A stretch of DNA of 64,000 nucleotides from an uncultured Rhodobacterales bacterium (GCA_964472855.1 CAYYMJ010000003.1:26933-90932), one strand, 5' to 3'; counted from the first letter of the stretch, positions 1 through 56,133 are shown. The notes: generated from the letters alone by a model not told the origin. Numbers and translations: made by a program.

Positions 1-1624
1 ACTCGGACGCGACCAGGCATACCTTGCGACGGTTGGCCTCGTCCCCACGCCGGCGGAAATGGCCGCGCACCCAGCTTTCCAGGTTATCTTCGGTATCCAG
101 GCTGCGGGCCGCGACAAGGCGCGACCAACCGTTATCAAGCCGGGCCCTTGTTTCCGCCGCTTCGCCGAAATCGACGACCCGACCCGCCTGCATCACGATC
201 AGCCGGTCGCACATTTCCATCAAGCCGCGGTTCTGGCTGACGATCACCACCGACCGGCCCAGCCGTACCTCGTGGCGCAGCCGCTCTTGCAGCGCGGTGA
301 TCTGGCGGTCATGCAGACCGTCTTCGGGCCGGTCGAGCAAATAGACATCCGGGGCCAACAGCAGCGCACGTGCCAGGGCAAGAGATTTTTTCTGCATGTC
401 TGGCAGCAGGTCGGCCGGTCCGTCGCAGATCCGGTCGACCAGGTCGGCCGAAAACACCAGCTTTTCCAGAATTTGCCGCCCACGAGCCTTTGCCGTGCTG
501 TCGTGGAAACAGGCGAGATTGTCTTCGCCGGATGCGGGAAGCACAAGGGGAGCGGGCGGGAGATAGACCGCCGTGACGCGGCGCGGCCCGCGGCCGCGCT
601 GCCACAGATCGTCGCCATGAACCGACACGTGGCCCCTGACCTCGGCCATGGCAATCGAGAATGGATCGGCCAACACCTGCAGCAGCATGGATTTTCCGGC
701 GCCGCTGTCCCCCACCAGGCCGGTGATCGACCCTGCCGGAACGGCGAATGACACGTCGGACAACAACTTTTGCGCGCCGACCGACAGATCCAGCGCCGAC
801 ACCAGCAACCCGCCGGCTTCAATCTCGTCCGGCTCGTCCAGTTCATGGCGCAAAACGCGGGCCGGCGCGTCTGCCCCGGCGCTGGCTGACCGCATCGTGC
901 GCAGCGCTTTCAGCGCGCTGCCGGCGGCCCAATAGGTGATCAGGCCAATGGCCGCCACCGCCGCCGGTTCCAGCACGCCGGTCGCCGAAAGCCAGCTGCC
1001 CGCCGCCAAAGACGCGGCCACTGACAACCATGTCAGCGAAGTCTGAACCGCCCCCGCGAGCGTGTGTTCGTCAAAATCGGTCCGGGCAAGCCTCAGACCT
1101 TCAAGATCGCGCCCGGCAAGCACTGGCACCGCCTCGGCCGGCCGAAAATCCCACGCGGATTCGCGGCCACCAAACCGGCTCAGCAGCCAGAAGACCGCCA
1201 CCCCAAGCAGACCGGCGACCAGAACGGGAAACAGCAACAGCGGATGCACCAGCCCGAAGGCCAAGGCAACGATCAGGCCCATCCATCCCTGCACGCGGAC
1301 AAAGGTCTTGCGCCGCTCGCTGCGGAACCCTGCCATGGCCCGCGCATGGGCATAATCCAGGCCGATGGCGCCAAGGATCGGCACCGCGACGATGGCCAGA
1401 AGCACCGGCGCAAGCCCCAGCTCGCCCTGTTCGGCCACCAGCGACTGGAAGAACAGCGCCGACAGGGCCGCGGCCAGCCAGCAAAGCCCGATCAGCACCG
1501 CAAAGATGCCGCTGATTGCGCGCGCCCAACCGGGCGAACGCCGATCGACGCCCTCAAGGTTCAGTTGTCCCGCCTCTTCCATCGGAAAGAGATTGCCGGG
1601 TGTTTCGGAATCGCCGTGTGCCAT
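1..1624 (-). CDS. Membrane-anchored ABC-type ATP-binding protein with degenerate NBD and extra C-terminal domain (3' end runs off the window)
   Basis: Absent from the ORF track because no stop lies in the window. My translation of the minus strand from ATG 1624-1622 stays open to base 1 (541 codons). About 250 aa hydrophobic N-terminus (roughly 6 TM helices). Walker A is GDSGAGKS. The signature is LPDMQ instead of LSGGQ, the Walker B region is VYLLDRPEDG (Arg where the catalytic Glu sits), and the switch His is replaced (VVIVSQNRG). The frame then continues SRLVAARSLDTEDNLESWVRGHFRRRGDEANRRKVCLVASE, resembling the N-terminus of RsbW/SpoIIAB-type kinases. Confidence 0.75.
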   Translation of the reverse strand, partial: MAHGDSETPGNLFPMEEAGQLNLEGVDRRSPGWARAISGIFAVLIGLCWLAAALSALFFQSLVAEQGELGLAPVLLAIVAVPILGAIGLDYAHARAMAGFRSERRKTFVRVQGWMGLIVALAFGLVHPLLLFPVLVAGLLGVAVFWLLSRFGGRESAWDFRPAEAVPVLAGRDLEGLRLARTDFDEHTLAGAVQTSLTWLSVAASLAAGSWLSATGVLEPAAVAAIGLITYWAAGSALKALRTMRSASAGADAPARVLRHELDEPDEIEAGGLLVSALDLSVGAQKLLSDVSFAVPAGSITGLVGDSGAGKSMLLQVLADPFSIAMAEVRGHVSVHGDDLWQRGRGPRRVTAVYLPPAPLVLPASGEDNLACFHDSTAKARGRQILEKLVFSADLVDRICDGPADLLPDMQKKSLALARALLLAPDVYLLDRPEDGLHDRQITALQERLRHEVRLGRSVVIVSQNRGLMEMCDRLIVMQAGRVVDFGEAAETRARLDNGWSRLVAARSLDTEDNLESWVRGHFRRRGDEANRRKVCLVASE

Positions 1625-1775
1625 CTTGCCCATCCATTGCTGACGGCTCCACTCCTAGGTGCTTCCAATTAACAGACACTTATGCCCGGCCAGGAATTCC
1701 CCTGTCTCCGATTGTCCGTTTCTTAACCCGGACCGGCCTATGAGTTGGGTATTCGCCGCAATGACCGGGTGAGAC

Positions 1776-3464
1776 ATGACGAAGAAAACCGGCTCTTCTC
1801 GCAGGGGCGCCCAATTTGGACTGGCCGCCCTGTGCGGCTCCGCCGTCCTGCTTGCGGGCGCCACCTGGAGCGTCGGTTCAGTGGCCCGGACAATGCTGCT
1901 GAAGCAAGAGGAAGAGATTACGCCAATCATCGCCGGCGGCGACCTTGACCGTATTCCCGCCCTGATGCGCGGCAATCTGGCCACGATGACCACGTCGATG
2001 GTGGACGAGACCGAAAGGCGTGTAAAGCCGCCCCGCATGTGCGAGATGCCCGACAATTATTTTGAACGGCTGGATCGCGGGCTCGACCAGCGCGTCGGCT
2101 ATACCCGCCGCAACGAATATGTCCGCCCCTATCGCGACCGGCGCGGCTTTCTGAACGAGCGCGAGCTTCGCGCCGCCCGCGTTGCCTGGCACTATTTCGA
2201 ACAATTCACTCAGGAAACCACCGGCCTTGCCAATTCGGTTGGCAATTATCCGTCGACCACCATGTGGGACACCGCCAGCTATGTTGCCGGCGCTGTGGCC
2301 GCTTACGAGTTGTGCCTGATCGAAAAGCCCGAATTCGACCAGCGAATTCTGCAGCTTTTGACAACGATCAAGGGGCTGGAACTGTTCCGAAAGGAATTGC
2401 CCAACAAGGTTTATCACACGAAGACCGGCGAAAAGGTCGACTATACCAACAAGCCCGGTGAAATCGGGTTTTCGGCGCTGGATATCGGGCGGTTTCTGGT
2501 CTGGATGCGAATTCTGAAGAATCGCTATCCGCATTTCAGCAACACAATCGATTCGGTACTGTTGAAATGGGATTTCAGTAATGTCGTTGACGACGAGGGC
2601 CTGCTTCACGGCTCTTATGTCGATCGGGAAACCGGCAATACCGTCTACGCCCAGGAAGGGCGGCTGGGTTACGAGGAATATGCCGCCAAGGGTTTTGCCT
2701 TGTGGGGGTTTCAGCCCATTCTGGCGCACCGGGCGGAACCGTTTCTGACCGCGTCGATCTTTGGTGTATCCGTGCCCTATGACGGGCGCGATCCGCGCAT
2801 TTTCCATTCACAGAATTACGTGGTGACGGAAAGCTACCTTCAGGACGGGATGGAGCTGGGCTTCAACCTGCCCCAGGACGACTCCAGCCCCGATTGGCTG
2901 CATTCCGATGGCTGGCGCGCCGAATTCGCCGACCGCATCTACGAGGTTCAGGAAAACCGCTGGCGGCAAACCGGCTATATGACGGCGCGGTCGGAACATA
3001 ACGTCAAGGGGCCGCCGTATTTCACATATGACACGATCTTTTCCGACGGCTATCCCTGGAACACGGTTACGCCGCGCGGGGATTATGTGCCCGACCATGC
3101 CGCGGTTGCCGCCAAGGCGGCGCTCGGGCTGTGGGCTCTTTGGGACACCGACTATACCGATGTCCTGTATGAAGCGATCATCGAGCTTTATAATCCCGAA
3201 AAGGGCATGTTCGAGGGGCTGTATGAACGCGGCCAGGGTCGTGTCGAGATCTTCACCGCCAATAACAACGGCATCATCCTGACCGCGCTGCTGCACAAGG
3301 TGCAGGGCACGATCCTGACGCCCTACACCGGCGAAACCGAGGTCTGGTATACCGCGTTCCGCGATCAGGACCTGCGCCGACGGCGCAACTATCCGGATCC
3401 GCCGCAGGAAGCCGACTGGCTGCCTGCCCTGCGACACTCTCTTCCTATCGAGGTGGACTACTGA
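1776..3464 (+). CDS. DUF3131-like protein (putative glycan-active enzyme) with N-terminal membrane anchor or signal
   Basis: 562-aa ORF with hydrophobic N-terminus (FGLAALCGSAVLLAGATW). Shares blocks with the paralogue at 5040-6359: GNYPSTTMWDTASYV/AGYPAATLWDQGSYV, LPNKVYHT/LPNKVYNT, IGFSALDIGRFL/IGWSAIDIARLL, YAQEGRLGYEEYAAK/YVQEGRIGYEQYAAR. The DUF3131 name is from memory, not a search. Confidence 0.8.
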   Translation: MTKKTGSSRRGAQFGLAALCGSAVLLAGATWSVGSVARTMLLKQEEEITPIIAGGDLDRIPALMRGNLATMTTSMVDETERRVKPPRMCEMPDNYFERLDRGLDQRVGYTRRNEYVRPYRDRRGFLNERELRAARVAWHYFEQFTQETTGLANSVGNYPSTTMWDTASYVAGAVAAYELCLIEKPEFDQRILQLLTTIKGLELFRKELPNKVYHTKTGEKVDYTNKPGEIGFSALDIGRFLVWMRILKNRYPHFSNTIDSVLLKWDFSNVVDDEGLLHGSYVDRETGNTVYAQEGRLGYEEYAAKGFALWGFQPILAHRAEPFLTASIFGVSVPYDGRDPRIFHSQNYVVTESYLQDGMELGFNLPQDDSSPDWLHSDGWRAEFADRIYEVQENRWRQTGYMTARSEHNVKGPPYFTYDTIFSDGYPWNTVTPRGDYVPDHAAVAAKAALGLWALWDTDYTDVLYEAIIELYNPEKGMFEGLYERGQGRVEIFTANNNGIILTALLHKVQGTILTPYTGETEVWYTAFRDQDLRRRRNYPDPPQEADWLPALRHSLPIEVDY

Positions 3465-4969
3465 TGAAATCTCTCAGCTTTTTTGCGCTGGCGCTCTTGC
3501 CTCTGGCCACGTCCGCTGCCGCCCAGGTCGCACAGTCCGCCAGTGGCGCCGATGCCTTCACGTCCGAGAATGCGATCCTTGACACATCCGTGCCCTTCGC
3601 AATTGGCGCCAGCGAGGCGCGGCAAGACCTTCGCGGGTCGTTCGGCTGGCCCACGTTTCAAGAGGGTCTGGTCGAAGGCGTCTATTTCCGTTTCGATCCC
3701 GACGGTTACGCCCGCTTCGCGCCCACGCCCAGGCTGGACAGCGACGTCTTCGAGGTCATCTGCCGTCCGCGCACCTTCAGCTGCATTGCCCGCAAGGGCG
3801 CGCTGACGCTCTTGCTGAATACGCGCGGCCAGCTTGAGATCAACCTTGAGGGCGTGGTCCCGGGCGACACGCTTTACGTCATCGAAGGGGTCACCGAGCT
3901 TCAGATCCCCGACCGGATCCTGCAGCCGCTGGACTGGCATCTGGAAGCGCTGCTGTCCGCAGGGGGCGAACTTGTGGCCCGCCGCGGCCCTGACAATGAA
4001 ATCACCCGCGTGTCTCTGATCGGGTTTCCGGCCGTGACCGCCTATCTGCGCTGGATCACGGCCCGGCAGGACTATACCGTGTTGCCGCGCGGCTGGCCGG
4101 TGCCGAATGCCGGTGGCGGCGCGTCGGGCGCCCTGACCCAGGCGACAGGATGGCCCAACACGTCCGGCCCCGCACAGATTGTCGGCGCTCAGGAGTTTCA
4201 GGCGCAGGCCGCGGAACCGGTCGCCGAAGATTCCGAAGTGGAACTGCTTCGCGGCGATATCGCCCGGCTCAAGCAACTGCTGGAGGGCCGCGGCAGCGTC
4301 GAAACCGGCGCCACCGAGGCGGTGACAATCGCAGGGCCCGCCGCCGCAAGCCAGCCCGCGCCGTCTGCGGATCAGCTGAGCAATCTTGAAACGGCAACGG
4401 CCGCGATATTGCGCGAGTTGGAAGACCTGCGCGGCAAGATACTCGTCATCGAAGACTCGGCCCGCGCCGAGGCTGCGCCCGACCCGGCCGCCTTGCCGGT
4501 CGAGGCGGCCGAGGCCGCCCCGGAAGCCACCGATGCGGTCCAAGAAGCCCCTACGATTTCGCTGGCCGACAAGTTGGACTTTCTCATCACCGAGATCGGC
4601 ATCGATCCGCAATTGGCGGTTGTTCTTGTAGAAATCGGACATCCCGGTGAGACCGAGGGTTACCAGCTTCCCGTCGCCCTGAACGAGGCGTCGACGCTGA
4701 GTTCGGACGAGATTCTGTCGCAGCTTCTGTCGGGCCTGAACGCGGTCGGGCAACTGCCGCTGGCGCAGGCGGAAACGTCGGACGTTGCGGCCGAGCAAGA
4801 GCCGCAGATGATCGCGGAGACATCCGAGCCGGAGGAGGCACCGGTCGCCGAGGCAACCGACGCCGCCGAGGCCGAAGAAACGCCACAGGTTCCCGAATTG
4901 CAGCCCGGCGAATATGTTCTTATTGCCGACTATTTCGCGTCAGTCTTCGGTGACAAGTCCGAAGAGTGA
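3464..4969 (+). CDS. Secreted protein of unknown function with acidic Ala/Glu/Pro-rich C-terminal half
   Basis: 501-aa ORF. Its start ATG overlaps the upstream stop (TGATG at 3462-3466). Clear signal peptide MKSLSFFALALLPLATSAAAQ. C-terminal third is low-complexity and acidic (EAAEAAPEATDAVQEAP, EPEEAPVAEATDAAEAEE). I recognise no family. Confidence 0.7.
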   Translation: MKSLSFFALALLPLATSAAAQVAQSASGADAFTSENAILDTSVPFAIGASEARQDLRGSFGWPTFQEGLVEGVYFRFDPDGYARFAPTPRLDSDVFEVICRPRTFSCIARKGALTLLLNTRGQLEINLEGVVPGDTLYVIEGVTELQIPDRILQPLDWHLEALLSAGGELVARRGPDNEITRVSLIGFPAVTAYLRWITARQDYTVLPRGWPVPNAGGGASGALTQATGWPNTSGPAQIVGAQEFQAQAAEPVAEDSEVELLRGDIARLKQLLEGRGSVETGATEAVTIAGPAAASQPAPSADQLSNLETATAAILRELEDLRGKILVIEDSARAEAAPDPAALPVEAAEAAPEATDAVQEAPTISLADKLDFLITEIGIDPQLAVVLVEIGHPGETEGYQLPVALNEASTLSSDEILSQLLSGLNAVGQLPLAQAETSDVAAEQEPQMIAETSEPEEAPVAEATDAAEAEETPQVPELQPGEYVLIADYFASVFGDKSEE

Positions 4970-5039: not shown

Positions 5040-6359
5040 TCAGTTTGCCAGTGACGCGTGGGCCTGCATGAAGGGCCCGTATTGCACCCGGTGCAGGGCT
5101 TCCAGGACAACCGCATTGGTGTTGAGCGACAAGACCGCGTTATCCTCGCCGGTGGCCTCATAGCGACCGGCCATCCATCCGCCCGGATCCTGACCAAGAT
5201 CGGCCAGCCCCGACACCACCATCTCAGTGTATTCGGTGCCAAAGATCGCGTCCCAGCCAAAGGCCGCCTTGACGCTGACGGTTCGCAATTCGGGATAGTT
5301 GCCGCCGCCTTCGGTCAAGGCCGGCCAGTCCTTGCCGTCACCCCGCACCGCTGCGTAAAGAAAATAGGGGTCGCGGTCGAGGTGATCCTCGGTGACGGCG
5401 GTGATGATGCCCTTGTTTTCATAGCGGGCCTCTTGCGCGCGATAGACCTGCTGGGCAAGACGATGACCGTCGGCATCGAAACCCAGCTCCAGACCTTGCA
5501 GGACGAAGGGCTCGCTCAGCACCGGCGTGATGGCACCAAACCGCAGGTGAGACCTGCGGTCCTTTGGGATATCCACGCCTTCCGTGCTGGTCCAGGCCAA
5601 CACGCGCCGTACCGATATGGCCGCGCCGACGTCGAGCCCCCAAAGCGCGGCGGCCCGGGCGGCATATTGTTCATAGCCGATCCGGCCTTCCTGCACATAG
5701 TTGGTTTCGTCGTCGGACACGTTGGCACCGATAAGCTCGCCGCTGCCGCCGATGTCGGCGACCTTCCAGTTGCCGATAACAACGCGAATGGCCGGGCCGA
5801 AACGGGGAAAATGCCGCTCGGCGCTTCGCAGGGCCAGCAGCAGACGCGCAATATCAATGGCCGACCAGCCGATGCCGCCGTCAACAACTTCGTTGCCATA
5901 ATTCACCATGGCCAGCGTCATGGTGTTGTACACCTTGTTGGGCAGGCGTCCCTCGAACAATGGCAAAAGGGAAAGGCTGGTCAGAAAGCTCGTCAACCGC
6001 TCGTCGAAGTCGTCATCGTCGATGATATCCAGCCGCCGCGCCGAGATCAGCGCGAACACGTAACTTCCCTGGTCCCAAAGCGTTGCTGCGGGATAACCGG
6101 CCACGGAATCGACGAACCCGGTTTCGGGGCGCGTATTCTCTTCGAAATATCGCCATGCCGTCCGCGCGGCCGCGCGTTCCGGCTGCGTCAGCCCACGCAG
6201 GGGCGCGACGGGCAAAAGATCGTTGTCAATTGTCACCGGCGTGTCCATCCTCGTGTTGACCAACTCGCCACCTTCGATCCACAGCGAAACAGAGGCCGCC
6301 AACGCAAGCCCGGACACAAGCAAGACGCTTGATCTGTATTTGGCAACAACATCGGACAT
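5040..6359 (-). CDS. DUF3131-like protein, paralogue 2, N-terminal membrane anchor
   Basis: Start moved from the track start 6440 to ATG 6359 (MSDVVAKYRSSVLLVSGLALAASVSLW), preceded by AGGAGAAGA. Shares motif blocks with 1776-3464 (see that feature). Confidence 0.8.
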   Translation of the reverse strand: MSDVVAKYRSSVLLVSGLALAASVSLWIEGGELVNTRMDTPVTIDNDLLPVAPLRGLTQPERAAARTAWRYFEENTRPETGFVDSVAGYPAATLWDQGSYVFALISARRLDIIDDDDFDERLTSFLTSLSLLPLFEGRLPNKVYNTMTLAMVNYGNEVVDGGIGWSAIDIARLLLALRSAERHFPRFGPAIRVVIGNWKVADIGGSGELIGANVSDDETNYVQEGRIGYEQYAARAAALWGLDVGAAISVRRVLAWTSTEGVDIPKDRRSHLRFGAITPVLSEPFVLQGLELGFDADGHRLAQQVYRAQEARYENKGIITAVTEDHLDRDPYFLYAAVRGDGKDWPALTEGGGNYPELRTVSVKAAFGWDAIFGTEYTEMVVSGLADLGQDPGGWMAGRYEATGEDNAVLSLNTNAVVLEALHRVQYGPFMQAHASLAN

Positions 6360-6384
6360 GTCTTCTCCTGTTTGGGAATCGTTC

Positions 6385-8124
6385 CTATCGGGCAGGCGCG
6401 TGGCGTGCCAGAAACCCGGTGGTAAGCGTCCCGACGGCAACCGACAAAAGGCCCCAGGAATTCCAGACGATCCAGGCGGTATTGACGGTCAGGAACGAGG
6501 CGTCATAGCCATCGCGCCCAACACTTGCCGACCAGACGCCCACGGCTATGGCGGAAAAACCCGCGGCAACAATCAAAAGCCCGGGCAGGGCAAGACGCAG
6601 ATCATCCCCCTTCGTCGGAATCTTCGGGGTCGCGACAAAGCGGATCGGCAAACGCCGCCACGCAACCCACAGGCCGCGGAGGTTGGTGACCAGGCCCGAC
6701 AGGGCCAGCCTGCGTCCGGCATCGTGGGCGTGGGACTTGCTGCCAATTGCCAGCGCAATCTCGGCCGAAACCAGAAACGGCAGCAGGTGGGCAAAAAAGG
6801 ACGACGCGTAATTCCCGACCGGCGCGACACCTGTCATGAGCGCAATGATCGGTGCGGCGATCAGAATTGGTGCCCAGATCGCCGAAAGGTAGGACCAGAA
6901 TGTCGCCAGATAATGCAATCTGGTCGCCAGCGGCATTCCGTTCTGCGCAACCCCCGGCTCGTTGAAAAACAGGTCAAACGATCCGCCGGCATATTTGAAA
7001 CTTTGCAGCGTCCAGGCCCTGTAGGACCTTGGCGACAGCATCTTGGCCTCGACCCTGGGGTGATAAACCGATCGCCAGCCCAAGCCGTGCTGAATGCGTG
7101 ACGTGCAGATATCTTCGGAAACATGAAAGCGAAAGGGCTCGACCTGCGGGGTTGCGCGGCCGCGGGCCAGCCCCGGGTCGCCGTCGACCAGCGTCTGCAG
7201 GCGGCTGCGCCGGGCCAGAGCCGACGCAAACAGGGCGTCGCGGCGATGAACCGAACCGGCCCCACAGCAGAATGACGCATGATTGCGGTCGCGGCGGCGC
7301 TGGATCACGTCAAAAAACAGCAGGGACGAGGCAAAGAACGGATCCCCGCCAACCTTTACCTTTTCCAGACGCCGCAAAACACCCAGCGGCAGCAACTGCG
7401 CACATTTTTGCGACATCGAGCGTAGCAGACTGGCCAGGGTCACACCCTCGGGGACCTCGTAGAACCAGTGTGGGGTCTGAACCCAGCCAACCCGGGAATC
7501 GTTGAAATAGCCCAGCGTATTTTCCAGAAACCCCGGGAAAAGCCGGGTGTCGGCGTCGCAAATGACCAGAAATGCCCCATTGGTCCGGAACAGCACATGA
7601 CGCAGGTTCCCGGCCTTGTAGCCCAGGTTGTCGGGGCGGTCGAAGTAACCGATGCCATATTCGGTGGCCAGCGCGGCGGCTTCGGGGCGGCAACCGTCGT
7701 CGGCAAGGTGGATCATGGCGCGAAAGCCCGGCGGCACCCGAACCGACAGCGCATCGCGAATGGTCGGCCGCAATATTTCAGGCGGTTCGTCAAGGCTGGC
7801 GATGACGATGTCGACGACAACCTCGTCGTCCGGACCATGGCCAGCGCCGACCGGGGCCGGGGACAGGGGGCGCGACGGCTCTTTCCAGATGTCAAAAATG
7901 AACAAAGCCAGCCCGGCATAGGCCAGCGTTTCGGCCGACGCGGTTGCGACCGAGAACAAGGGGGCGGCGTCGTTCAGCCCCGCGCTCCAACGCCACCACA
8001 GATACCAGGCACCAAAGCCCAGCGCCATGGACGCGACAAGCTGCCAGGCGGTGCTGCGCGCCGTGCTCATCAAGGTCAGCTCTGGCGGCTGAACATGTTC
8101 AAAGTCTTCGAAATAAGCTGTCAT
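6385..8124 (-). CDS. Processive family-2 glycosyltransferase, cellulose-synthase (BcsA)-like catalytic core, no PilZ domain
   Basis: 579-aa ORF with BcsA-type blocks in order: DIVIASLDEP, HLADDG, ICDADT, VQTPHWF, FCCGAGSVHRRDAL, SEDICTS, then QSFKYAGG where QxxRW is expected. TM helices at both ends. The C-terminus shows no RxxxR/DxSxxG PilZ signature. Confidence 0.9.
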   Translation of the reverse strand: MTAYFEDFEHVQPPELTLMSTARSTAWQLVASMALGFGAWYLWWRWSAGLNDAAPLFSVATASAETLAYAGLALFIFDIWKEPSRPLSPAPVGAGHGPDDEVVVDIVIASLDEPPEILRPTIRDALSVRVPPGFRAMIHLADDGCRPEAAALATEYGIGYFDRPDNLGYKAGNLRHVLFRTNGAFLVICDADTRLFPGFLENTLGYFNDSRVGWVQTPHWFYEVPEGVTLASLLRSMSQKCAQLLPLGVLRRLEKVKVGGDPFFASSLLFFDVIQRRRDRNHASFCCGAGSVHRRDALFASALARRSRLQTLVDGDPGLARGRATPQVEPFRFHVSEDICTSRIQHGLGWRSVYHPRVEAKMLSPRSYRAWTLQSFKYAGGSFDLFFNEPGVAQNGMPLATRLHYLATFWSYLSAIWAPILIAAPIIALMTGVAPVGNYASSFFAHLLPFLVSAEIALAIGSKSHAHDAGRRLALSGLVTNLRGLWVAWRRLPIRFVATPKIPTKGDDLRLALPGLLIVAAGFSAIAVGVWSASVGRDGYDASFLTVNTAWIVWNSWGLLSVAVGTLTTGFLARHAPAR

Positions 8125-10344: not shown

Positions 10345-11478
10345 TCAGGTGATCTCCGCTGTCTGGGTGTTGCGACGGCCAAGGCGCGGCAGGGGGCCCA
10401 GCCCGATGGTCCAGGCGATCAGGGGAATTCGGCCCATGATGGCCACCAGGATCGACGTTGTCGTAAGCGTCCAGACGATCTTGATCAGCACTTGCAGGGT
10501 CGGCGTCAGCGCGACGTTGCTTAGCGCGATTTCCGCCAGGTCGAGGAAGATCGGGTGACACAGGTAGATGCCGAATGAATAGGGTGCCAGCCGGGACAGG
10601 ATGGGCGGCCAGCGGCGATGCGCCAGCGACATGCAGCCGGCAAACAGCGCCACCGGCATCAGGAAATCGGCCCAGTAACCGGCGGTATAGTTGAAGGGCC
10701 ACGCACCGGATTCGATGGTCTTGTAGCTGGCCACCAGTTTGAGCGTGAACAGCGCCAGGCCGATGTAAAGCGCCGGCAGAAACCACTCTCGCCCGTCGGT
10801 GGCGCGCAAGCGATCCCAAAGGCCCAGCGCCGCGGCGGCGGCAAAGCCATAGCCCGCATAGGTCAGAACCTTGACGGCCCGAACCGCGAATTCCAGCCAG
10901 GCGGCGTCGTAAAATGTGCCATAAAGAAAGCCGTCGAGCTCGCGCTTGACCAGCAGGCAGACGATCACGGCCATCCCGAATTGCGGATACTTCCGGGCCA
11001 CGCGGAACAGCGGATACATCAGCACCAGAAGAAACAGCGTCGGAAGAAAGTGCATGTGGAATTTCACGCTGCCCAGCGTGGCATATCCCAACAGGGCGAC
11101 CGGGTCCGTCAGGTCGGCCAGCCGCGCGTCAAGATACCCAAAATAGTCTGCCTTTATAAGGGTGTAAAAGACGTAAAACACCGTCCAGAATGCGAAGGGC
11201 ACCAGCAGCCTGCGCACCTGAACAGCGATGGTCTGGCGATAGGTGGCGGGGCGCCGGTCCAGCGACATCAGCAGCAGGAAGACCGAGATCATCAGAAACA
11301 GCTCGGTCCGGGCGGTATAAAGGACCGCCCGCAGCAGGATCGGGCCGGTTCGCTCGGCCAGAGAATAGTCGACCCATGGCAAACCGCTGGAATCCGCCGT
11401 CGAATGCAGCCCGACCATTGACAGCCCCGCCGCAAGGCGCAGGGCATCGAGCCAAACCAGTCTTTCTTTTTCAGCCAT
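10345..11478 (-). CDS. Acyltransferase family 3 (OpgC/OafA-like) integral membrane protein
   Basis: Start chosen at ATG 11478 (MAEKERLVWLDALRLAAGLSMVGLH, typical acyltransferase-3 N-terminus) rather than the track start 11685. About 10 hydrophobic helices across 377 aa. Confidence 0.8.
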   Translation of the reverse strand: MAEKERLVWLDALRLAAGLSMVGLHSTADSSGLPWVDYSLAERTGPILLRAVLYTARTELFLMISVFLLLMSLDRRPATYRQTIAVQVRRLLVPFAFWTVFYVFYTLIKADYFGYLDARLADLTDPVALLGYATLGSVKFHMHFLPTLFLLVLMYPLFRVARKYPQFGMAVIVCLLVKRELDGFLYGTFYDAAWLEFAVRAVKVLTYAGYGFAAAAALGLWDRLRATDGREWFLPALYIGLALFTLKLVASYKTIESGAWPFNYTAGYWADFLMPVALFAGCMSLAHRRWPPILSRLAPYSFGIYLCHPIFLDLAEIALSNVALTPTLQVLIKIVWTLTTTSILVAIMGRIPLIAWTIGLGPLPRLGRRNTQTAEIT

Positions 11479-11621
11479 CAGGGTTCCCGTTCCGTTTTCC
11501 GGCAACCTGTCAGCCGACTCCCAAAAATTGGTAAACCGCGCCCCAACTTTTTCACCCGGCCGACCACAACGATTCCTTAAGCCTTCCCGGTCATGACTTG
11601 GCCCGAAAGGGATGCCCGCGA

Positions 11622-12149
11622 ATGAGCAGAATTGCCTTGATCCTGTTGCTGGTGCTTGCACCCGACAGCCTTGCCGCCCAGGCACTTTCGGCCAATGACT
11701 GCGCCGAAATCCGCGCCGCCTATGGCATAATCCCCCAAGGGTGCCCGGCTGTCGCCGACGTGGCCGCCCCGGTGCGCGCGTTGTCAGAACCGGCCCCGTC
11801 GGATCGCGAAAGCCATATCTTCTTTCCGCACGGCGGCAGCCGGGTCGACCCGGCCGGCGCGGCCCAGATCGAACGGTTGGCCGCGGTTCTGGAATCGCCT
11901 CCTGTGGCGGGCCTGTGCATCCGCCTGACCGGGCACTCTGACGTCTCCGGCGCGGCGGCGGTCAACGTGCGGATCTCGCGGCGCCGGGCCGAGGCCGTGG
12001 CGACCGCGCTGCGGCCGCTGATGGCCGACAATACCCGCATAACCGAGGTGCGGGGCCTGGGCGAAGCCGAACCGCTGCCCTCGATCGACCCGACCAGTTC
12101 CTGGCAACGCCGCGTGGCAATCGAACTGGGGCGCTGTCCGCCGGTCTGA
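11622..12149 (+). CDS. OmpA-like (peptidoglycan-associating) domain protein with signal peptide
   Basis: Start moved to ATG 11622 (MSRIALILLLVLAPDSLAAQA). OmpA C-terminal motif LTGHSDVSGAAAVNVRISRRRAEAVATAL. Divergent from the glycan operon. Confidence 0.75.
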   Translation: MSRIALILLLVLAPDSLAAQALSANDCAEIRAAYGIIPQGCPAVADVAAPVRALSEPAPSDRESHIFFPHGGSRVDPAGAAQIERLAAVLESPPVAGLCIRLTGHSDVSGAAAVNVRISRRRAEAVATALRPLMADNTRITEVRGLGEAEPLPSIDPTSSWQRRVAIELGRCPPV

Positions 12150-12207: not shown

Positions 12208-13002
12208 ATGACCGACACCAAACCCGCTGTCGAGCTTGACGCCGCAGAAGAGCTTGTCGACCTGCCGGAAATTGGCGACCGCGAACGGTATGACCAGTTG
12301 ATGCAGACCATCCGCAACCGGGTGACGGTGCGGAAATTCGACCCCGAATTCACGGTGCCCGACGACCATTACACCCTGATCCTTGAAGCCGCGCGCCACG
12401 CCCCGTCGGGGGCCAATGCGCAGCCATGGCAATTCATCGTGGTGCGGGAACAGGCGACCAAGGACGCCATCACCGAATATTTCGTGGCCGAGCAGCGATT
12501 TCGCGCCAAGGCCAAGATGAAATTTCCCACGCCCGACTATCGCGGGCTGGCCAGCGCGCCCGGGTTCGTCGTGGTGTGTTCCGACATGCGATGGGTCAAT
12601 GCCTTTCCGGTGCTGAACGACGGCAGCGATCTGGACCGCATGTATCGCGAAAACGCCGAACGCATCTTGCTGCAGTCGGTGGCCGCGGCAACCATGTCGG
12701 CGCATCTGGCGGCGGCGGCGCTGGGCTATAACGTCTGGTGGGTGACCGCGATCGGGCAGGAACAGGCGCAGGCGGCCATGCGCCCCCTGCTGGGCATCCC
12801 CGATGAGATCTCGGTGCTCGACATCTTCCTGTTTGGTCCGCCGGCCGCCCGGCCCTACAAGCGGTTCCGCCGCGCGATGGGGGAAATCGCGCATTTCGAC
12901 CGCTACGACGCCAGCCATTTCATGTCGGACGCCGAGCTTGACGACTGGATTCGCAAGCGCCGCCACCGGGTCATGTACAAGGATGCCAGCCGGATCGACT
13001 GA
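12208..13002 (+). CDS. Nitroreductase family protein
   Basis: 264-aa ORF with VRKFDPEFTVPDDHYTLILEAARHAPSGANAQPWQFIVV, typical of the NAD(P)H-flavin nitroreductase fold. Confidence 0.85.
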   Translation: MTDTKPAVELDAAEELVDLPEIGDRERYDQLMQTIRNRVTVRKFDPEFTVPDDHYTLILEAARHAPSGANAQPWQFIVVREQATKDAITEYFVAEQRFRAKAKMKFPTPDYRGLASAPGFVVVCSDMRWVNAFPVLNDGSDLDRMYRENAERILLQSVAAATMSAHLAAAALGYNVWWVTAIGQEQAQAAMRPLLGIPDEISVLDIFLFGPPAARPYKRFRRAMGEIAHFDRYDASHFMSDAELDDWIRKRRHRVMYKDASRID

Positions 13003-13048
13003 ACCGCGCGCCCGCGCGTTGCAGCGTTTCACGTTCAACCCGATCCCA

Positions 13049-13174
13049 GTGGATCGAATCTGACGTTTCGAGCCACCGGTATTTTCACTATGCATCAACT
13101 AATCAAAACATTTGAATGGTTTATGATCAAAGCCTGCGCCCGGAGGCGGGATTCAAATGTTTCGGTCGATCCAC
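13049..13174 (+). repeat. 126-bp MITE-like element, copy L, with its own perfect 9-bp terminal inverted repeats
   Basis: Aligns without gaps to the reverse complement of 17521-17646 with 10 mismatches over the 125 compared positions (hand alignment). Ends are GTGGATCGA...TCGATCCAC. AT-rich core (tcactatgcatcaactaatcaaaacatttgaatggtttatgatcaaa) with an internal inverted repeat aaacatttgaat / attcaaatgttt. Confidence 0.9.
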
Positions 13175-13250
13175 TAGGAGGCATCGGCTGACGCGATGGA
13201 ATCGGCGGTTTCAGGCGGCGTCGGGCGGGTTTGCTTCACCGCGAAACGCG

Positions 13251-14558
13251 TCAGCCAAACATCGTGTCGGGCAGCAGCAGGGCCAGGGCCGGGAACAGCA
13301 GCACCAGGATGACGGCAGCCAGCATCGCAAACCAGAATGGCCAGATGCCGCGAAAGATCGTGCCCATGGGCACGCCCGGGGCTATGCCTTTGACCACGAA
13401 CACGTTCACGCCGACGGGGGGCGAGATCAGCCCCATTTCCAGCACGATCACCATCAACACGCCGAACCAGATCATGTTGATGCCAAGCGGTTCCAGGATC
13501 GGCTGGATCAGCGGCACCGTCAGCACCAGAATGGCGAAACCGTCCATGAACATGCCAAGCACGATGAAGATGCCCAGGAACGCAACGACCACCTGCATGC
13601 CCGACAGGCCCAGCCCCTCGACCCACAGCGACAGCGCATAGGTGATGCCGGTAAAGCCGATGAAGGTCTTGAACACGAAGGCGCCGAACAGGATCAGGAA
13701 CACCGTCCCCGACGATTTCAGGGTGCTGGCGAACACCTCTTTCATGTTGGCCCAGGTCACGGCCCGGCGGATGGCGGTGACGATGAAGGCCAGAAAGGCG
13801 CCGATGCCCGCGGCCTCGACTGCCGAAAACACGCCGGTATAGATGCCGCCGATGGTCAGCAGGATGATGGCGACGATCCAGCCGGCCCGCGCCAACGCAC
13901 GCAGACGCGCCGCCATGTCGGCCCGGCTGTTGTCTTGCGGTGCCTTGGACGGATCGCGGCTGACGGTGATCCAGATGGCAAGGATGAACAGCGACGTCAG
14001 CACCAGGCCCGGAATGATCCCGGCCATGAACAGCCGGCCAATCGATTCCTCGGTCAAAATCGCATAGATCACAAAGCCCGCCGACGGCGGGATCAGGATG
14101 CCAAGCGTTCCGCCGGCGGCAATGGCACCGGTGGCCAGCCCGTTGTCATAGCCAAAACGCTGCATCTCGGGCAGGCTGACCCGCCCCATGGTCAGCGCCG
14201 CCGCCAGCGACGATCCCGAAAGCGCCGAGAAGCCGGCGCAGCCCACCACGGTGGCCGAGGCCAGCCCGCCCTTGAGATGACCCAGCCAGCTGTGGGCGGC
14301 GTCATACAGGTCGCGGCTCATCCCCGAAACCCCGGCCAGATTGCCCATCAGCACGAACAGCGGGATGATGGTCAGCGGATAATTCGACGCCTCGTTGAAT
14401 ATCTCGCCGGCCAGCTTGGGTATAGCGGCCTGCGACCGCACCATCCAGATGCCCAGCGTGCCCACCAGCAGCATGGCGATGCCAACCGGCATGCGGATGA
14501 ACAACAGCAGAAACAGCAGGCCGAAACCGGCCAGGGCAAGGGTTGCACCGTCCATCAT
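13251..14558 (-). CDS. TRAP transporter large permease (DctM family)
   Basis: Highly hydrophobic ~435-aa product. Start set at ATG 14558 (MMDGATLALAGFGLLFLLLF), overlapping the DctQ stop in an ATGA. Typical DctM blocks (GIAMLLVGTLG, PPSAGFVIYAILTEESIGRLFMAGIIPG). Confidence 0.9.
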   Translation of the reverse strand: MMDGATLALAGFGLLFLLLFIRMPVGIAMLLVGTLGIWMVRSQAAIPKLAGEIFNEASNYPLTIIPLFVLMGNLAGVSGMSRDLYDAAHSWLGHLKGGLASATVVGCAGFSALSGSSLAAALTMGRVSLPEMQRFGYDNGLATGAIAAGGTLGILIPPSAGFVIYAILTEESIGRLFMAGIIPGLVLTSLFILAIWITVSRDPSKAPQDNSRADMAARLRALARAGWIVAIILLTIGGIYTGVFSAVEAAGIGAFLAFIVTAIRRAVTWANMKEVFASTLKSSGTVFLILFGAFVFKTFIGFTGITYALSLWVEGLGLSGMQVVVAFLGIFIVLGMFMDGFAILVLTVPLIQPILEPLGINMIWFGVLMVIVLEMGLISPPVGVNVFVVKGIAPGVPMGTIFRGIWPFWFAMLAAVILVLLFPALALLLPDTMFG

Positions 14559-15088
14559 TCTTCCAATTCGTTGGGGTCGCGAGGTTGCCGCCAATGGGCA
14601 AGCCCCATCAGCAGATGCACAAGCATCTGCAACCCATAGATACCCATGGCCACCCCAAGGACATAGTAATACGGCCGGTGCACGATGCTGAAATTGCCGG
14701 TTATGCAGGCCTTTTCCATGCCGCAGGCCCGGGTGAACAGGCCCCAGACGGCCAGCGCGCAGATCGCCACCGTCAGCGTGCGCATGGCAGCATCGGTATA
14801 GCGGGTGACGCCGCGGCCGGCGAAATAGGTCAGAAGATTCACGCTGACATGGGCGCCGGTGCGCCCGCCATAGGCCACGGCGCCGGCAACCACGATGGTC
14901 AGCGTGATGATCGAAAGATCCTCGATCCCGAAGATCGGGTTGTTCAGGCCATAGCGCCAGACCACGGCCACGATGGTGATGCCAACCAGCCCCACCGCCG
15001 CCAGCGACCCCACGACAGCAAGCAGCCCGGCCATGCGGCCGAGCTGCCTGTCACACCAGACCAGATAAGCCGGTGTGTCTTTGCCCAA
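14555..15088 (-). CDS. TRAP transporter small permease (DctQ family)
   Basis: 177-aa ORF with 4 TM helices, positioned between the DctP and DctM genes. Confidence 0.85.
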   Translation of the reverse strand: MGKDTPAYLVWCDRQLGRMAGLLAVVGSLAAVGLVGITIVAVVWRYGLNNPIFGIEDLSIITLTIVVAGAVAYGGRTGAHVSVNLLTYFAGRGVTRYTDAAMRTLTVAICALAVWGLFTRACGMEKACITGNFSIVHRPYYYVLGVAMGIYGLQMLVHLLMGLAHWRQPRDPNELEE

Positions 15089-15091
15089 GGC

Positions 15092-16072
15092 TTACTGGCC
15101 CATCATCAGCGACATGACATCGCCCACGGTGGTGTCGCCGATCGCTTCGTCCTTGGCGGCGGCGATGGCCGGGGCCAGAGCCGCGTTCCAGCGGGCCTTT
15201 TCTTCGTCGCTGAGGTCGATGATCTCGACGCCGCCTTCGGCCGCGATCTGCAGACCACGGGCCGCGGCCCGGTCATAGAATGTGCCGCCGGCCATGGACA
15301 ACGACGCATCCGACGCGGCGCTGACCCAGCCTTGCTGTTCTTCGCTCAGGCTGTTCCAGACATCGTTGTTCATCAGCAGCACGAACGCCGACCCCGAGCC
15401 CGGGAACCATGTGGTCAGGTAATTGGCGGGCTCGTGCAGCTTGAACGAACCGATGGCCGACGGCCCGATGGCGATGGCGTCGATCACACCATTGGCTAGG
15501 TTCTGGTTGATCACGTTGACCGGCTGGGCCACGGCCGAGGCACCCAGCGCCTCGACAAAGGGCACGTCCTGCTTCGAGGTTACCCGCACCTTCATGCCGG
15601 CCAGATCCTCGAGCGTGCGCACAGGCGTGTCGCGCGTCAGCAGGATCGGCGGAGCATTGGCCCAGATCGCCAGCAGCTTGGCGTTGTATTCGCCTTCCAG
15701 CAGGTCGCGGGCCCGCAACAGCGCCTCGGTACAGGCGACCGAACTGGTGCAGACGTCCGGCAGCGTGACGACATTGGTCAGCGGGAACACGTCACCGGTA
15801 TAGCCGGGCAGCGTGAAAACGATGTCGGCGACGCCGTCCAGCAGAATCGCATACTGTTTCGGCGGAACCGAATTCAGCGCCCCGCCCGGAAACTGGCGAA
15901 CCGTCATTTCGCCGCCCGACACTTCGGCCAGCTTGTCCGCGAACGGTGTGAACACGGCGGCGTTCATCGGGTGTTTCGGTCCCATGAAATAGGCCAACGA
16001 CAGTTCCGACGCGCCGGCCGCGCCCCCGAACGCCAAGGCGGCGCCGACGGCAAGCCCCAGGAATTTCCGCAT
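15092..16072 (-). CDS. TRAP transporter substrate-binding protein (DctP family)
   Basis: Start moved from 16366 to ATG 16072 (MRKFLGLAVGAALAFGGAAGASE signal peptide). DctP-type sequence LSLAYFMGPKHPMN...QFPGGALNSVPPKQY. Confidence 0.9.
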   Translation of the reverse strand: MRKFLGLAVGAALAFGGAAGASELSLAYFMGPKHPMNAAVFTPFADKLAEVSGGEMTVRQFPGGALNSVPPKQYAILLDGVADIVFTLPGYTGDVFPLTNVVTLPDVCTSSVACTEALLRARDLLEGEYNAKLLAIWANAPPILLTRDTPVRTLEDLAGMKVRVTSKQDVPFVEALGASAVAQPVNVINQNLANGVIDAIAIGPSAIGSFKLHEPANYLTTWFPGSGSAFVLLMNNDVWNSLSEEQQGWVSAASDASLSMAGGTFYDRAAARGLQIAAEGGVEIIDLSDEEKARWNAALAPAIAAAKDEAIGDTTVGDVMSLMMGQ

Positions 16073-16322
16073 GGTCGATTCTCCCTTTTGTCCTGACCGT
16101 TGACACTTGCCATCAGGCGGACACGGTCGATTGCAGGCCAAGGTTACGCGGGAAAATGCGGTCCACAAAGCAAATTGGCGTGCGCCGTTGCGTAGACAAC
16201 CAGCCGTTTGCGCACGCGCACCGGCGCAGATGCGGGGCCGGTCGCGCCCGGCAGCCCCGGTTTCAGGCCCCGACGCCAGCGGCCACCACGCGCGCAAAAG
16301 GGTGGCCGGAACGCCGGCCGGA

Positions 16323-17267
16323 TCAGCCGCGCGCCGCCCGCTGCCGCGCCACGTCGCGCGCAACAAGGTCGCGGTAAAGTTCGCGCAATTTCAGCGTCAC
16401 GGGCCCCGCCCCCTGCCCGTTGCCGATGGTCCGGCCGTCGATTTCGGCCACCGGGGTCTGGGCGCCGAAGGTGCCGGTCAGAAAGGCTTCGTCGGCGCCA
16501 TAGGCTTCGTAGAGCGAGAAATTCTTCTCGCGCACCGCAATGGCGTTTTCCCGGCAAAGGTCGATGATCTTCTGCCGGGTCACACCGTTCATGCAATAGT
16601 CGCCGGTCGAGGTCCAAACCTCGCCACGGCGCACGATGAAGAAGTTGCAGGCGTTGGTGGTGTTCACAAAGCCATGCGGGTCCAGCATCAGCGCCTCGTC
16701 GGCGCCGGCCTGCTCGGCCTGCAGGCAGGCGATGACGCAGTTCAGCTTGGAATGGCTGTTGAATTTCGGATCCTGGCTGGTGGGCAACCCGCGCACCTGC
16801 GGCACCGACGCCAGCCGGATACCGCTGTTCAGAAGATGCGCCGCCGGCCTTGAATGCTCGACAATCGCCACGACGGTCGGCCCGAACCGGCTGAGCGCCG
16901 GGTGCTGAAACGGCTTGGCCTTGCGCCCGCGCGTGACCATCAGGCGGCAGTGGGCGTCGGTCGTGATGCCGTTGGCCCGGGCGGTGCGGTCAAGAATGGC
17001 GCGCAGCCCGTCCCGGCCATGCCCGATGTCCAGCGCCACCGCCTTGCAGCTGTCAAACAGCCGGTCCATGTGGTCGTCGAAAAAGGCCCACTGGCCATCG
17101 TAAAGGCGCAGCCCTTCCCACATGCCGTCGCCCAGCAGGAAGCCGCTGTCATAAACCGACACCACCGCCTGCGCCTTGGGAACGATGTCACCGTTCACAT
17201 AGATCACGATGTCGTCGTTGCGCGGGTCGGTGTCCGCGTCATGGGTGCTGGGGGCTTGATCGATCAT
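16323..17267 (-). CDS. Class IV aminotransferase (branched-chain / D-amino-acid aminotransferase fold)
   Basis: 314-aa ORF with VSVYDSGFLLGDGMWEGLRLYDG...FFDDHMDRL, typical of fold-type IV PLP enzymes. Confidence 0.85.
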   Translation of the reverse strand: MIDQAPSTHDADTDPRNDDIVIYVNGDIVPKAQAVVSVYDSGFLLGDGMWEGLRLYDGQWAFFDDHMDRLFDSCKAVALDIGHGRDGLRAILDRTARANGITTDAHCRLMVTRGRKAKPFQHPALSRFGPTVVAIVEHSRPAAHLLNSGIRLASVPQVRGLPTSQDPKFNSHSKLNCVIACLQAEQAGADEALMLDPHGFVNTTNACNFFIVRRGEVWTSTGDYCMNGVTRQKIIDLCRENAIAVREKNFSLYEAYGADEAFLTGTFGAQTPVAEIDGRTIGNGQGAGPVTLKLRELYRDLVARDVARQRAARG

Positions 17268-17344
17268 GCAGGCTCACCGTTGGGCTTTGGCCCGACGTGA
17301 CGCCATTTGCGCGCAACCGTCCAGCGAAAACCCGTGCCGGTCCG

Positions 17345-17503
17345 TCAGGTGCGCAGACCAGTCGCGTTGTCAAAGGTGTGAATCAGCGCCGGGTCGATGT
17401 TGAAATGCATCGCGTCGCCCATCTTCCCGGCCCGGGGCCCTGCCGTCCCGGTGATGAATTCCCGGCCCTCGCGGCCTGCCACCAACGGCGGCGCGAGGTG
17501 GTC
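17345..17503 (-). pseudogene. 3' remnant of a MalK/UgpC-type sugar ABC ATPase (C-terminal regulatory/TOBE region only)
   Basis: My translation gives DHLAPPLVAGREGREFITGTAGPRAGKMGDAMHFNIDPALIHTFDNATGLRT*. Compare the C-terminus of the intact ATPase at 60886-61965 (...KSGDKITIGFDPAQASMFDDKTEHRL*). Two in-frame stops lie immediately upstream and the fragment abuts repeat copy R. No Walker motifs or 5' part are nearby. Confidence 0.5.
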
Positions 17504-17520
17504 TCATCAGGCATCAACTC

Positions 17521-17646
17521 GTGGGTAGACCGAAACATTTGAACCCCGCCGCCGGGCGCAGGCTTTGACCATAAACCATTCAAATGATTTGATCAGTTGA
17601 TGCATAGTGAAGATAGTGGTGGCTCGAAACGTCAGATTCGATCCAC
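17521..17646 (-). repeat. 126-bp MITE-like element, copy R (inverted relative to copy L)
   Basis: Its reverse complement aligns base-for-base with 13049-13174. The outer end TCGATCCAC is intact; the inner end is degenerate (GTGGGTAGA versus GTGGATCGA). Confidence 0.9.
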
Positions 17647-17744
17647 CAGGTCGAGGTCGTCGCCTCGCGCGGCCAAGCGCCGGGCACAGGCATTCCTGAT
17701 GGCTGATTGGGCCCGGTCAGGGCGTTAACCATGCTCGCCCGCGA

Positions 17745-18584
17745 TCAGTCCCATTCCGGGGCCCAGACAACCTTGTCCGAGGTGACGATGCGGTGACCTG
17801 TCCGGCCCAGTGCGTCGATCCGGGCCATGTCGACGTTGGACAGCGCAAAGTCCATGATGTCAAAATTGGCGCGGATATTGGCCGGCTTGGTGGACATGGT
17901 GTTCATGCTGACCCCCTTTTGCAGGATCCAGCGCAGCGTGACCTGCGCCGCCGACTTGCCGTGCGGCGCGCCGATATCGGCAAACAGCGGATGGTCAAAC
18001 ACCGCCCCACGCGCCACCGAGCAGTAAGACGAGATCGGCACACCCATCGCGCTGGCCGCGGCCAGCAGGCGGCTTTGGTCCAACAGCGGATGAAATTCGA
18101 TCTGGTTGGTAGACAGCGGCGTCGCGAGCGTATCCAGTGCGGTGCGCAACATGGCGCTGGTATAGTTCGACACGCCGATATGGCGCGCCAAGCCGCGGTC
18201 GTGGGCCGCCTGCAGCAGTTTCAGCGACGCCGCGACCACGCCATCCTCGGGCGGCCAGTGCAGCAGCAGGACATCCACCTGCGCCAGCCCCAGGTCTTTC
18301 AGGCTGCGTTCGACCGACGGCAGAAACCGGGTTTGCGAAAAATTGTCCGGGTGCACCTTGGTCGTGACGCAAAAGGCGTCACGCGGCAGGCCCGCGTTGC
18401 GCAGCGCCTGCCCGGTCTCGGCCTCGTTTCCATACATCTGGGCGGTGTCGATCGCGCGATACCCGGTCTCGATCGCGGTTTCGATGGTCGCGATGCCGTC
18501 CTTGCCCGTCAGCGGATAGGTGCCAAACCCGCGTTGGTTCACGCCCTGAAAATATACGCTCATCATATGCTCCGTTGACGGCAA
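17745..18584 (-). CDS. Aldo/keto reductase
   Basis: 279-aa ORF with GFGTYPL...GYRAIDTAQMYGNE...HWP..., typical of the AKR family. The true start may be ATG 18566. Confidence 0.9.
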   Translation of the reverse strand: MPSTEHMMSVYFQGVNQRGFGTYPLTGKDGIATIETAIETGYRAIDTAQMYGNEAETGQALRNAGLPRDAFCVTTKVHPDNFSQTRFLPSVERSLKDLGLAQVDVLLLHWPPEDGVVAASLKLLQAAHDRGLARHIGVSNYTSAMLRTALDTLATPLSTNQIEFHPLLDQSRLLAAASAMGVPISSYCSVARGAVFDHPLFADIGAPHGKSAAQVTLRWILQKGVSMNTMSTKPANIRANFDIMDFALSNVDMARIDALGRTGHRIVTSDKVVWAPEWD

Positions 18585-56057: not shown

Positions 56058-56133
56058 TGGTGCCCCCAGAGAGACTCGAACTCCCGACCCCCTGATTACA
56101 AATCAGGTGCTCTACCAGCTGAGCTATAGGGGC
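56058..56133 (-). tRNA. tRNA-Thr (anticodon UGU)
   Basis: The reverse complement GCCCCTATAGCTCAGCTGGTAGAGCACCTGATTTGTAATCAGGGGGTCGGGAGTTCGAGTCTCTCTGGGGGCACCA folds as a cloverleaf: 7-bp acceptor, D arm GCTC/GAGC, anticodon stem CCTGA/TCAGG with loop TTTGTAA, T arm GGGAG/CTCTC with TTCGAGT, encoded CCA. Confidence 0.95.

Follow-up and report, generated by a model that had tools for sequence, protein, structure and literature searches.

The stretch of DNA studied here (the window, 64 kb in all, from an uncultured Rhodobacterales bacterium) carries two inverted copies of a short repeat, designated copy L and copy R. The copies bracket a 4.3-kb segment with the genes of a tripartite ATP-independent periplasmic (TRAP) transporter, a class IV aminotransferase gene and the remnant of an ATP-binding cassette (ABC) ATPase gene. 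The segment is flanked by a nitroreductase gene on the left and an aldo/keto reductase (AKR) gene on the right. The repeat represents a family not described before, whose members are small, non-coding, dispersed and relatively A+T-rich and have terminal inverted repeats of 12 bp. The features of the locus, in window coordinates, are as follows:

12208..13002, + strand: nitroreductase gene, left flank (Pfam)
13046..13177, + strand: copy L, 132 nt; 3 differences from the family consensus
13046..13057, + strand: left terminal inverted repeat of copy L, CCAGTGGATCGA (family consensus CTAGTGGATCGA)
13106..13162, + strand: internal hairpin of copy L, a 12-bp inverted repeat around a 33-nt loop
13166..13177, + strand: right terminal inverted repeat of copy L, TCGATCCACTAG
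13251..16072, - strand: dctP-dctQ-dctM TRAP transporter genes, enclosed by the copies; orthologous to and colinear with the genes beside the nitroreductase gene of a relative (contig L007)
13251-14555, - strand: DctM (Pfam)
14555-15034, - strand: DctQ (Pfam)
15092-16072, - strand: DctP (Pfam)
16323..17267, - strand: class IV aminotransferase gene (Pfam), enclosed by the copies and outside the repeat itself
17345..17503, - strand: remnant of a UgpC/MalK-type ABC ATPase gene, the last 52 codons and the stop
17518..17649, - strand: copy R, 132 nt, inverted relative to copy L; 11 differences from the family consensus; inner end degenerate (GTCTACCCACGAG)
17745..18563, - strand: aldo/keto reductase gene, right flank (Pfam)

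A repeat search identified window positions 13049-13177 and 17518-17646 as inverted arms of 129 nt with 91% complementarity and a spacing of 4340 nt. Direct ungapped comparison of the two copies gave 11 mismatches in 129 positions (BLAST E = 4e-49), including perfect blocks of 29 and 17 nt. The first 29 outer nucleotides were the same in both copies and, as the copies are inverted, both outer ends correspond to the "left" end of the element. After an alignment of the whole family had lengthened the terminal repeats to 12 bp, the limits of the element were set at 13046-13177 and 17518-17649. Copy L has perfect 9-bp ends (GTGGATCGA...TCGATCCAC) and an internal 12-bp inverted repeat formed by AAACATTTGAAT (13106-13117) and ATTCAAATGTTT (13151-13162). 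The G+C content was 0.46 in copy L and 0.50 in copy R, compared with 0.64 in the window. These measurements agreed with the first-pass annotation of this DNA, which had reported gap-free inverted copies with 10 mismatches in 125 positions, A+T-richness in a G+C-rich genome, and the 9-bp terminal and 12-bp internal inverted repeats of copy L. The nitroreductase gene and dctM converge on copy L, with their 3' ends 44 and 74 nt from it, respectively. Copy R is located 96 nt downstream of the AKR stop codon and 250 nt upstream of the aminotransferase start. No third copy was found in the window by BLAST with 7-nt words, by a two-sequence profile or by the later family profile.

The distribution of the repeat was surveyed by one exact 20-mer scan of the JGI metagenome collection. 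Of the 19 loci recovered, five represented the region of the window itself, six matched the 20-mer alone, by chance, and eight carried full-length copies elsewhere. When strain variants were merged, nine distinct loci remained: window L, window R and seven further contexts (L031=L028, L019=L032a, L032b, L032c, L029=L033, L020 and L023=L035). The first-pass annotation had named occurrence at the two window positions only as evidence against a mobile repeat; the nine loci found here favor the mobile-repeat reading. The seven further copies were 87-98% identical to copy L, and the contigs carrying these copies had a G+C content of 60-70% and Rhodobacterales-like tetranucleotide profiles resembling that of the window. 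The tetranucleotide similarity among all Rhodobacterales loci was r = 0.87-0.98, a range that does not separate genomes.

In the alignment of the nine loci, the mean column identity was 91% and similarity ended sharply on both sides. The family consensus is 132-133 nt long with 45% G+C (CTAGTGGATCGAATCTGACGTTTCGAGCCACCAGTATTTTCACTATGCATCAACTAATCAAAACATTTGAATGGTTTATGATCAAAGCCTGCGCCCGGCGGCGGGATTCAAATGTTTCGGTCGATCCACTAG), carries 12-bp terminal inverted repeats (CTAGTGGATCGA / TCGATCCACTAG) and contains an internal inverted repeat of 12-14 bp. The only open reading frame (ORF) in the element is a 29-codon read-out, for which tblastn found no homologue. Compared with its own reverse complement, the interior without the 12-bp ends gave -7, against -10 +/- 7 for shuffles. 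Since self-complementarity was confined to the ends, the element has the anatomy of inverted ends plus a unique core, unlike a REP-type (repetitive extragenic palindromic) palindrome or hairpin. Single-strand folds were predicted to pair the ends and to form the internal hairpin.

The relationships among the copies were star-like. Besides the 3 and 11 differences of copies L and R, 4 differences from the consensus were counted in L031, 5 in L019 and 18 in L023, which left copy R as the most decayed copy of the main group. Of 133 aligned positions, 14 differed between copies L and R, a number equal to their differences from the consensus added together, and each copy was nearer to the consensus than to any other copy. 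This pattern pointed to spread from a master sequence and showed that the pair in the window are not mutual local duplicates. The MITE-like (miniature inverted-repeat transposable element) anatomy proposed by the first-pass annotation was supported and strengthened by nine dispersed loci, conserved ends, a star phylogeny and the intergenic position of every copy.

Searches beyond the metagenome scan returned no relatives of the family. A profile hidden Markov model of the family detected neither diverged copies in the relatives' loci nor single REP-like half-copies among 46 sequences. The element and each of its ends, compared by blastn with the PLSDB plasmids, gave only chance or coding matches. 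An exact 19-mer of the element end had two matches in 185,579 GTDB species representatives, with nothing shared beyond the 19-mer; the source species is evidently not among the GTDB representatives, or its region is masked there. No Rfam family matched the element at gathering scores or at E<=10; the best match around copy L had E=0.78, far under the gathering scores, and the sole Rfam match in the window was a tRNA elsewhere. No consensus promoter or terminator was detected within the element, and literature searches with the end sequences returned only unrelated primers.

The element was intergenic at all nine loci, and most copies were found at gene 3' ends. L032c lies between convergent stop codons (43 and 38 nt away), much as copy L does. 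In L019, the terminal CTAG (4001-4004) supplies the TAG stop codon of an ABC permease gene, and in L023 the terminal TTAA (2667-2670) supplies the TAA stop codon of a 789-codon ORF. In L029, L032b and L020 the left end is at most about 15 nt from a start codon. The repeat ends in CTAG, a tetranucleotide observed 10 times in the window against 212 occurrences expected from base composition, a 21-fold depletion. If CTAG/TA is the end or the target of the element, most of the available sites would be expected at gene boundaries. The consensus also contains two GANTC sites (CcrM methylation), at positions 11-15 and 105-109, which lie at 13056-13060 and 13150-13154 in copy L, and each site is missing from a few copies. 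GANTC is itself 2.7-fold depleted in the window (79 observed, 212 expected). In this respect the element is reminiscent of the CcrM-associated intergenic repeats (CIR) found in Caulobacter and Brucella. Three contigs of Logan SRR5211068 (the ends of L001, L047 and L049) stop 22-28 nt inside a copy, as repeated ends are expected to halt a k-mer assembler. In L031, about 2.9 kb of lower G+C (0.55-0.60; 764-3650) adjoins one copy and has the appearance of an inserted islet. Within it are ORFs for OsmC-like, HxlR-like and alpha/beta-hydrolase proteins, together with a 3' piece (about 2541-2756) duplicated from the aminotransferase gene located next to it (3650-4831).

Comparison with L007, a relative's contig of 3.75 Mb, was informative on the history of the bracketed segment. 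L007 carries a nitroreductase gene followed, convergently, by dctM-dctQ-dctP; this arrangement is colinear with the window, with 73% nucleotide identity over 2.8 kb. Amino acid identities between the window and L007 were 84% for the nitroreductase, 84% for DctM, 61% for DctQ and 78% for DctP. The next-best TRAP system, which is located in another context on a Yoonia plasmid, reached 73, 46 and 51% for DctM, DctQ and DctP, respectively. The adjacency of nitroreductase and TRAP genes thus crosses copy L with equal divergence from L007 on both sides and looks inherited as a block, with copy L inside it. In the spacer corresponding to the position of copy L, L007 has a gene (10804-11994) for a 396-aa protein with an OsmC domain, of which no remnant was found in the nitroreductase-dctM spacer of the window. 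The similarity to L007 does not extend past window 16039, about 30 nt within the 5' end of dctP, and the aminotransferase gene may therefore be a secondary addition to the TRAP genes. A non-coding spacer of 250 nt (window 16073-16322) separates the aminotransferase stop codon from the dctP start. The closest relatives of the aminotransferase are found in unrelated contexts in Thalassovita, Ruegeria, Paroceanicella and Mameliella. On the right flank, the block of AKR, CoA-transferase and enoyl-CoA hydratase genes is also kept in Sagittula and Paracoccus plasmids. The aminotransferase gene and the right flank thus each have a history of their own.

The ABC ATPase remnant adjoins copy R. The reading frame of the remnant opens at a distance of 15 nt from copy R's inner end, similarity to UgpC starts 7-12 codons further in, and 77 nt separate its end from the aminotransferase start. 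In a tblastn search against plasmids, all four annotated matches were the extreme C-termini of UgpC-type ABC ATPases; the top match had E = 5e-3 and stopped four codons short of the stop codon of that protein. A search for a full-length relative of the remnant in a set of 5.8 billion proteins returned the same locus only. The first-pass annotation had called this truncated fragment foreign, and nothing was found that marks it as such. The same annotation had stated that dctMQP, a class IV aminotransferase gene and a truncated fragment are enclosed without a transposase, and this description was supported by Pfam, by the reading frame and by the plasmid matches. No transposase gene was detected in the enclosed interval or in about 10 kb on either side. 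Neither an integrase nor a transposase was found in the four low-GC3 gaps inspected in the window. Elsewhere in the window, an ORF with an HNH_2 endonuclease domain (54978-55910) lies in a slightly lower-G+C gap beside the only tRNA gene of the window (56061-56133).

Bracketing of genes by two copies was not peculiar to the window. L032 has three copies in 8.3 kb. Between two inverted copies lie a DUF1989 gene and a glycosyltransferase gene, and between two direct copies lie a glycosyltransferase family 2 (GT2) gene, a response-regulator-like gene, rnhB and a ccrM-like methyltransferase gene. The genes bracketed in L032 are core genes, not cargo, and such bracketing is commonplace for the family. 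Between the direct copies, at 5660-7643, rnhB stands beside the ccrM-like gene, whose product has N6_N4_Mtase and RAMA domains.

All contigs that span the junctions of the window segment showed a single arrangement (JGI 3300024344, 3300009703 and Ga0114932; ENA ERZ27249630, a contig of 65 kb, and ERZ27251152). The junction nitroreductase-L-dctM was present in L002, L005, L006, L017 and L026, and the junction AKR-R-remnant-aminotransferase in L017, L018 and L027. A sixth dataset, Logan SRR5211068, has contigs that stop inside the copies and carries no information on orientation. Exact-protein look-ups with the aminotransferase, DctM, AKR and nitroreductase found none of these proteins outside this arrangement. 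Beyond this population, the nitroreductase and the aminotransferase had their closest homologues, at only 84-85% identity, in Rhodobacterales such as Marivita, Thalassovita and Shimia. The neighborhoods of the relatives differ from that of the window, and the strain variants all carry the copies.

Taken together, these observations suggest that the repeat is probably a MITE-type element carried by an uncultured marine Rhodobacterales population, with copies L and R as two independent insertions. A transposase encoded elsewhere in the genome would recognize the CTAGTGGATCGA ends and move the element in trans. Insertion would take place into intergenic TA/CTAG sites, which in this genome would be almost restricted to stop codons and spacers. 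The two copies would have arrived separately, one in the spacer downstream of the aminotransferase-dctPQM string and the other upstream of it. Copy R would be the older or the more decayed of the two, and the 4.3-kb segment between them would be resident chromosomal DNA that was never a moved unit. An old deletion or rearrangement, with copy R at its breakpoint, may have eliminated the remainder of a sugar ABC operon, since copy R adjoins a 5'-truncated ABC ATPase gene. Such an event could have been an adjacent deletion through the transposase or a recombination between two copies.

The repeat has much in common with prokaryotic MITEs, which are defined as elements of less than 500 bp with terminal inverted repeats of 4-30 bp that are A+T-richer than the host, intergenic, multi-copy and potentially able to form a stem-loop (PMC10969869). 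It shares with them the size class, the terminal repeats, the A+T-richness, the lack of coding capacity, the copy number, the intergenic location and the predicted stem-loop. It differs in that it is A+T-rich only relative to its host (45% versus 64% G+C) and in that no parent insertion sequence (IS) or transposase was identified, no target duplication was demonstrated and no insertion polymorphism was seen. Type II MITEs share only their terminal repeats with any IS (PMC10969869). The Correia elements (CREE) of Neisseria are similar in being about 100-155 bp long, intergenic and present in many copies, with TA at the junctions and no known cognate transposase. Moreover, the first 8 nt of the element, TAGTGGAT, equal the Correia start tatagtggatta... 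(PMC5039591), the element reading CC-TAGTGGATCGA here. Nothing is similar beyond these 8 nt, however, and the match could be due to chance. The terminal repeats are 12 bp long here and 26 bp in Correia elements, and the present element has an alphaproteobacterial host, no ends that form TATAAT and no match to the integration host factor (IHF) consensus WATCAANNNNTTR.

Several observations weigh against this MITE-type interpretation. An autonomous element with matching ends was not found in the window, the fetched loci, the PLSDB plasmids or IMG/VR, the last searched by three exact-pattern scans without a match. With all 20 boundary definitions tried (k = 2-9), the flanking direct repeats amounted to TA/TA only, at three of the nine loci; the remaining loci had single-transition variants (CA, TG) or unrelated bases, and copy R kept TA at neither flank. 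As TA is palindromic, it could equally belong to the inverted repeat, so that none of these is an unambiguous target-site duplication. No empty site or presence/absence polymorphism was encountered, the next homologues after those of 99-100% identity reaching at most 85% at the amino acid level; every empty-site test is limited by the fact that the host has no close sequenced relative. The other copies share metagenomes with the window, but tetranucleotide signatures could not assign them to the same genome. The family is narrow or fast-evolving, as the 19-mer reached no other species among the GTDB representatives. Two features would also be compatible with a composite unit, namely the contrast between the identical outer 29 nt and the decayed inner end of copy R, and the CA dinucleotide flanking each outer end; both are within chance. 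Mobility is what we infer: of the three features that would prove it (a clear target duplication, an empty site, a cognate transposase), none was found in the sequences searched.

An intergenic repeat spread without a DDE transposase is unlikely, though less so than the other alternatives. Such a repeat could be REP/REPIN-like and move by a Y1 enzyme (a REP-associated tyrosine transposase, RAYT, or an IS200/IS605-type transposase), or it could be related to CIR and be retained because of a role in the host, for instance in methylation-dependent regulation or transcript stabilization. The absence of any target duplication longer than TA and of a transposase partner is compatible with this, as is the location of most copies at gene 3' ends. 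The left end is a GTGG-headed imperfect palindrome (GTGG-A-TCGAA...TTCGA-G-CCAC) and the right half makes a second hairpin, so that one strand can fold into two arms and a linker, like CIR (PMC2229807). Two GANTC sites persist in the consensus despite the depletion of this motif in the window. Against a REPIN, the ends share 12 nt only, interior palindromy is at chance level, the profile search found no REP-like half-copies, and no RAYT gene was present at the loci examined. CIR resemble the element in being about 110-130 bp long, alphaproteobacterial and strictly intergenic, with GANTC sites and two arms plus a linker (PMC2229807). They differ in that the present repeat has clear 12-bp terminal inverted repeats and was found in one narrow lineage only, the comparison with CIR being one of descriptions only. 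CIR are described as conserved between genera, whereas the present element had no match in rhizobial or Rhodobacterales plasmids and each of its GANTC sites has been lost in some copies.

A more far-reaching version of the CIR comparison, which we consider improbable, holds that the repeat is a CIR-like element with a host function. It would be CcrM-methylatable and CTAG-ended, would have spread to gene boundaries, and would supply stop codons, insulate or co-regulate operons and drive rearrangements, with the 4.3-kb segment still invertible or mobilizable in trans. If this were true, the truncation of the ugpC-like gene and the joining of the aminotransferase and TRAP genes would be one repeat-driven rearrangement.

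The first-pass annotation had compared the whole arrangement to a mobile insertion cassette. In a composite unit without transposase, the two copies would provide the outer ends, and the whole 4.6-kb segment would have moved, or would be movable, in trans. This is quite improbable for the window. MITE pairs around mobilized integrons have been documented (PMC10969869), and MITE-flanked units such as the class 1 integrons of Acinetobacter and the mobile insertion cassettes of Bacillus resemble the locus in that two small copies bracket a few kilobases without a transposase. Such units have flanking copies with few or no differences between them and are found repeatedly, at different places and with flanking duplication (PMC10969869), whereas the copies in the window have 14 mismatches in 133 positions, occur around the segment in one context only and have their left boundary within a block common to L007. 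The enclosed DNA is a mosaic with a gene remnant among its parts, and the outer "left" ends share their first 29 nt while the inner end of copy R is degenerate. With 11 mismatches in 129 nt, however, a longest identical run of about 30 nt is expected, so the 29-nt run is close to chance. Likewise, both outer flanking dinucleotides are CA on the + strand, but the probability of such a 2-bp match by chance is about 1/16 or more, CA or TG being the left flank at five of the nine loci. Adjacency of nitroreductase and dctMQP genes across copy L is common to L007, with the same divergence as the flanking gene, and L032 shows a similar bracketing of core genes. The cassette was therefore not upheld: evidence against it comes from the synteny with L007, the unrelated contexts of the closest relatives of the aminotransferase, the non-sister relationship of the copies, the core genes of L032 and the single context.

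It is highly improbable that the segment is an invertible switch in which homologous recombination between the copies flips the aminotransferase-dctPQM string; the first-pass annotation had also suggested a segment invertible by recombination between the copies. The inverted copies, which are 91% identical and have two perfectly matching blocks (29 and 17 nt), are possible RecA substrates, and the pair could in principle support rare RecA-dependent inversion; no sign of inversion was found. No alternative junction occurred in any population contig, and the orientation of dctMQP relative to the nitroreductase gene is the same as in L007. Moreover, no site-specific recombinase gene lies nearby, and an inversion would take the gene string along with its upstream DNA, with no obvious regulatory effect.

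A small-RNA gene or cis-regulatory RNA duplicated at both ends of the operon is equally remote. The fold was somewhat more stable than shuffles in three of four strand/copy combinations (z -2.1 to -3.1) and the alignment fold has 40 pairs, but for one strand of copy R the fold was not better than that of shuffles (z +0.85), neither an Rfam match at E<=10 nor a promoter-like or terminator-like site was found in the element, and the copies occur in both orientations relative to their neighbors and at stop and start codons alike. Pair changes on both sides were limited to one diverged lineage, L023/L035, so they provide no independent evidence for a selected RNA structure.

The Rhodobacterales thus gain an undescribed family of small repeats; our literature searches found no paper describing this repeat sequence or any MITE family of this order. 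The family breaks short-read assemblies at its copies, and knowing it helps to finish metagenome-assembled genomes of the lineage. Finally, inverted repeats around metabolic genes need not mean a mobile cassette if the repeat is dense and the genes are syntenic with those of relatives.

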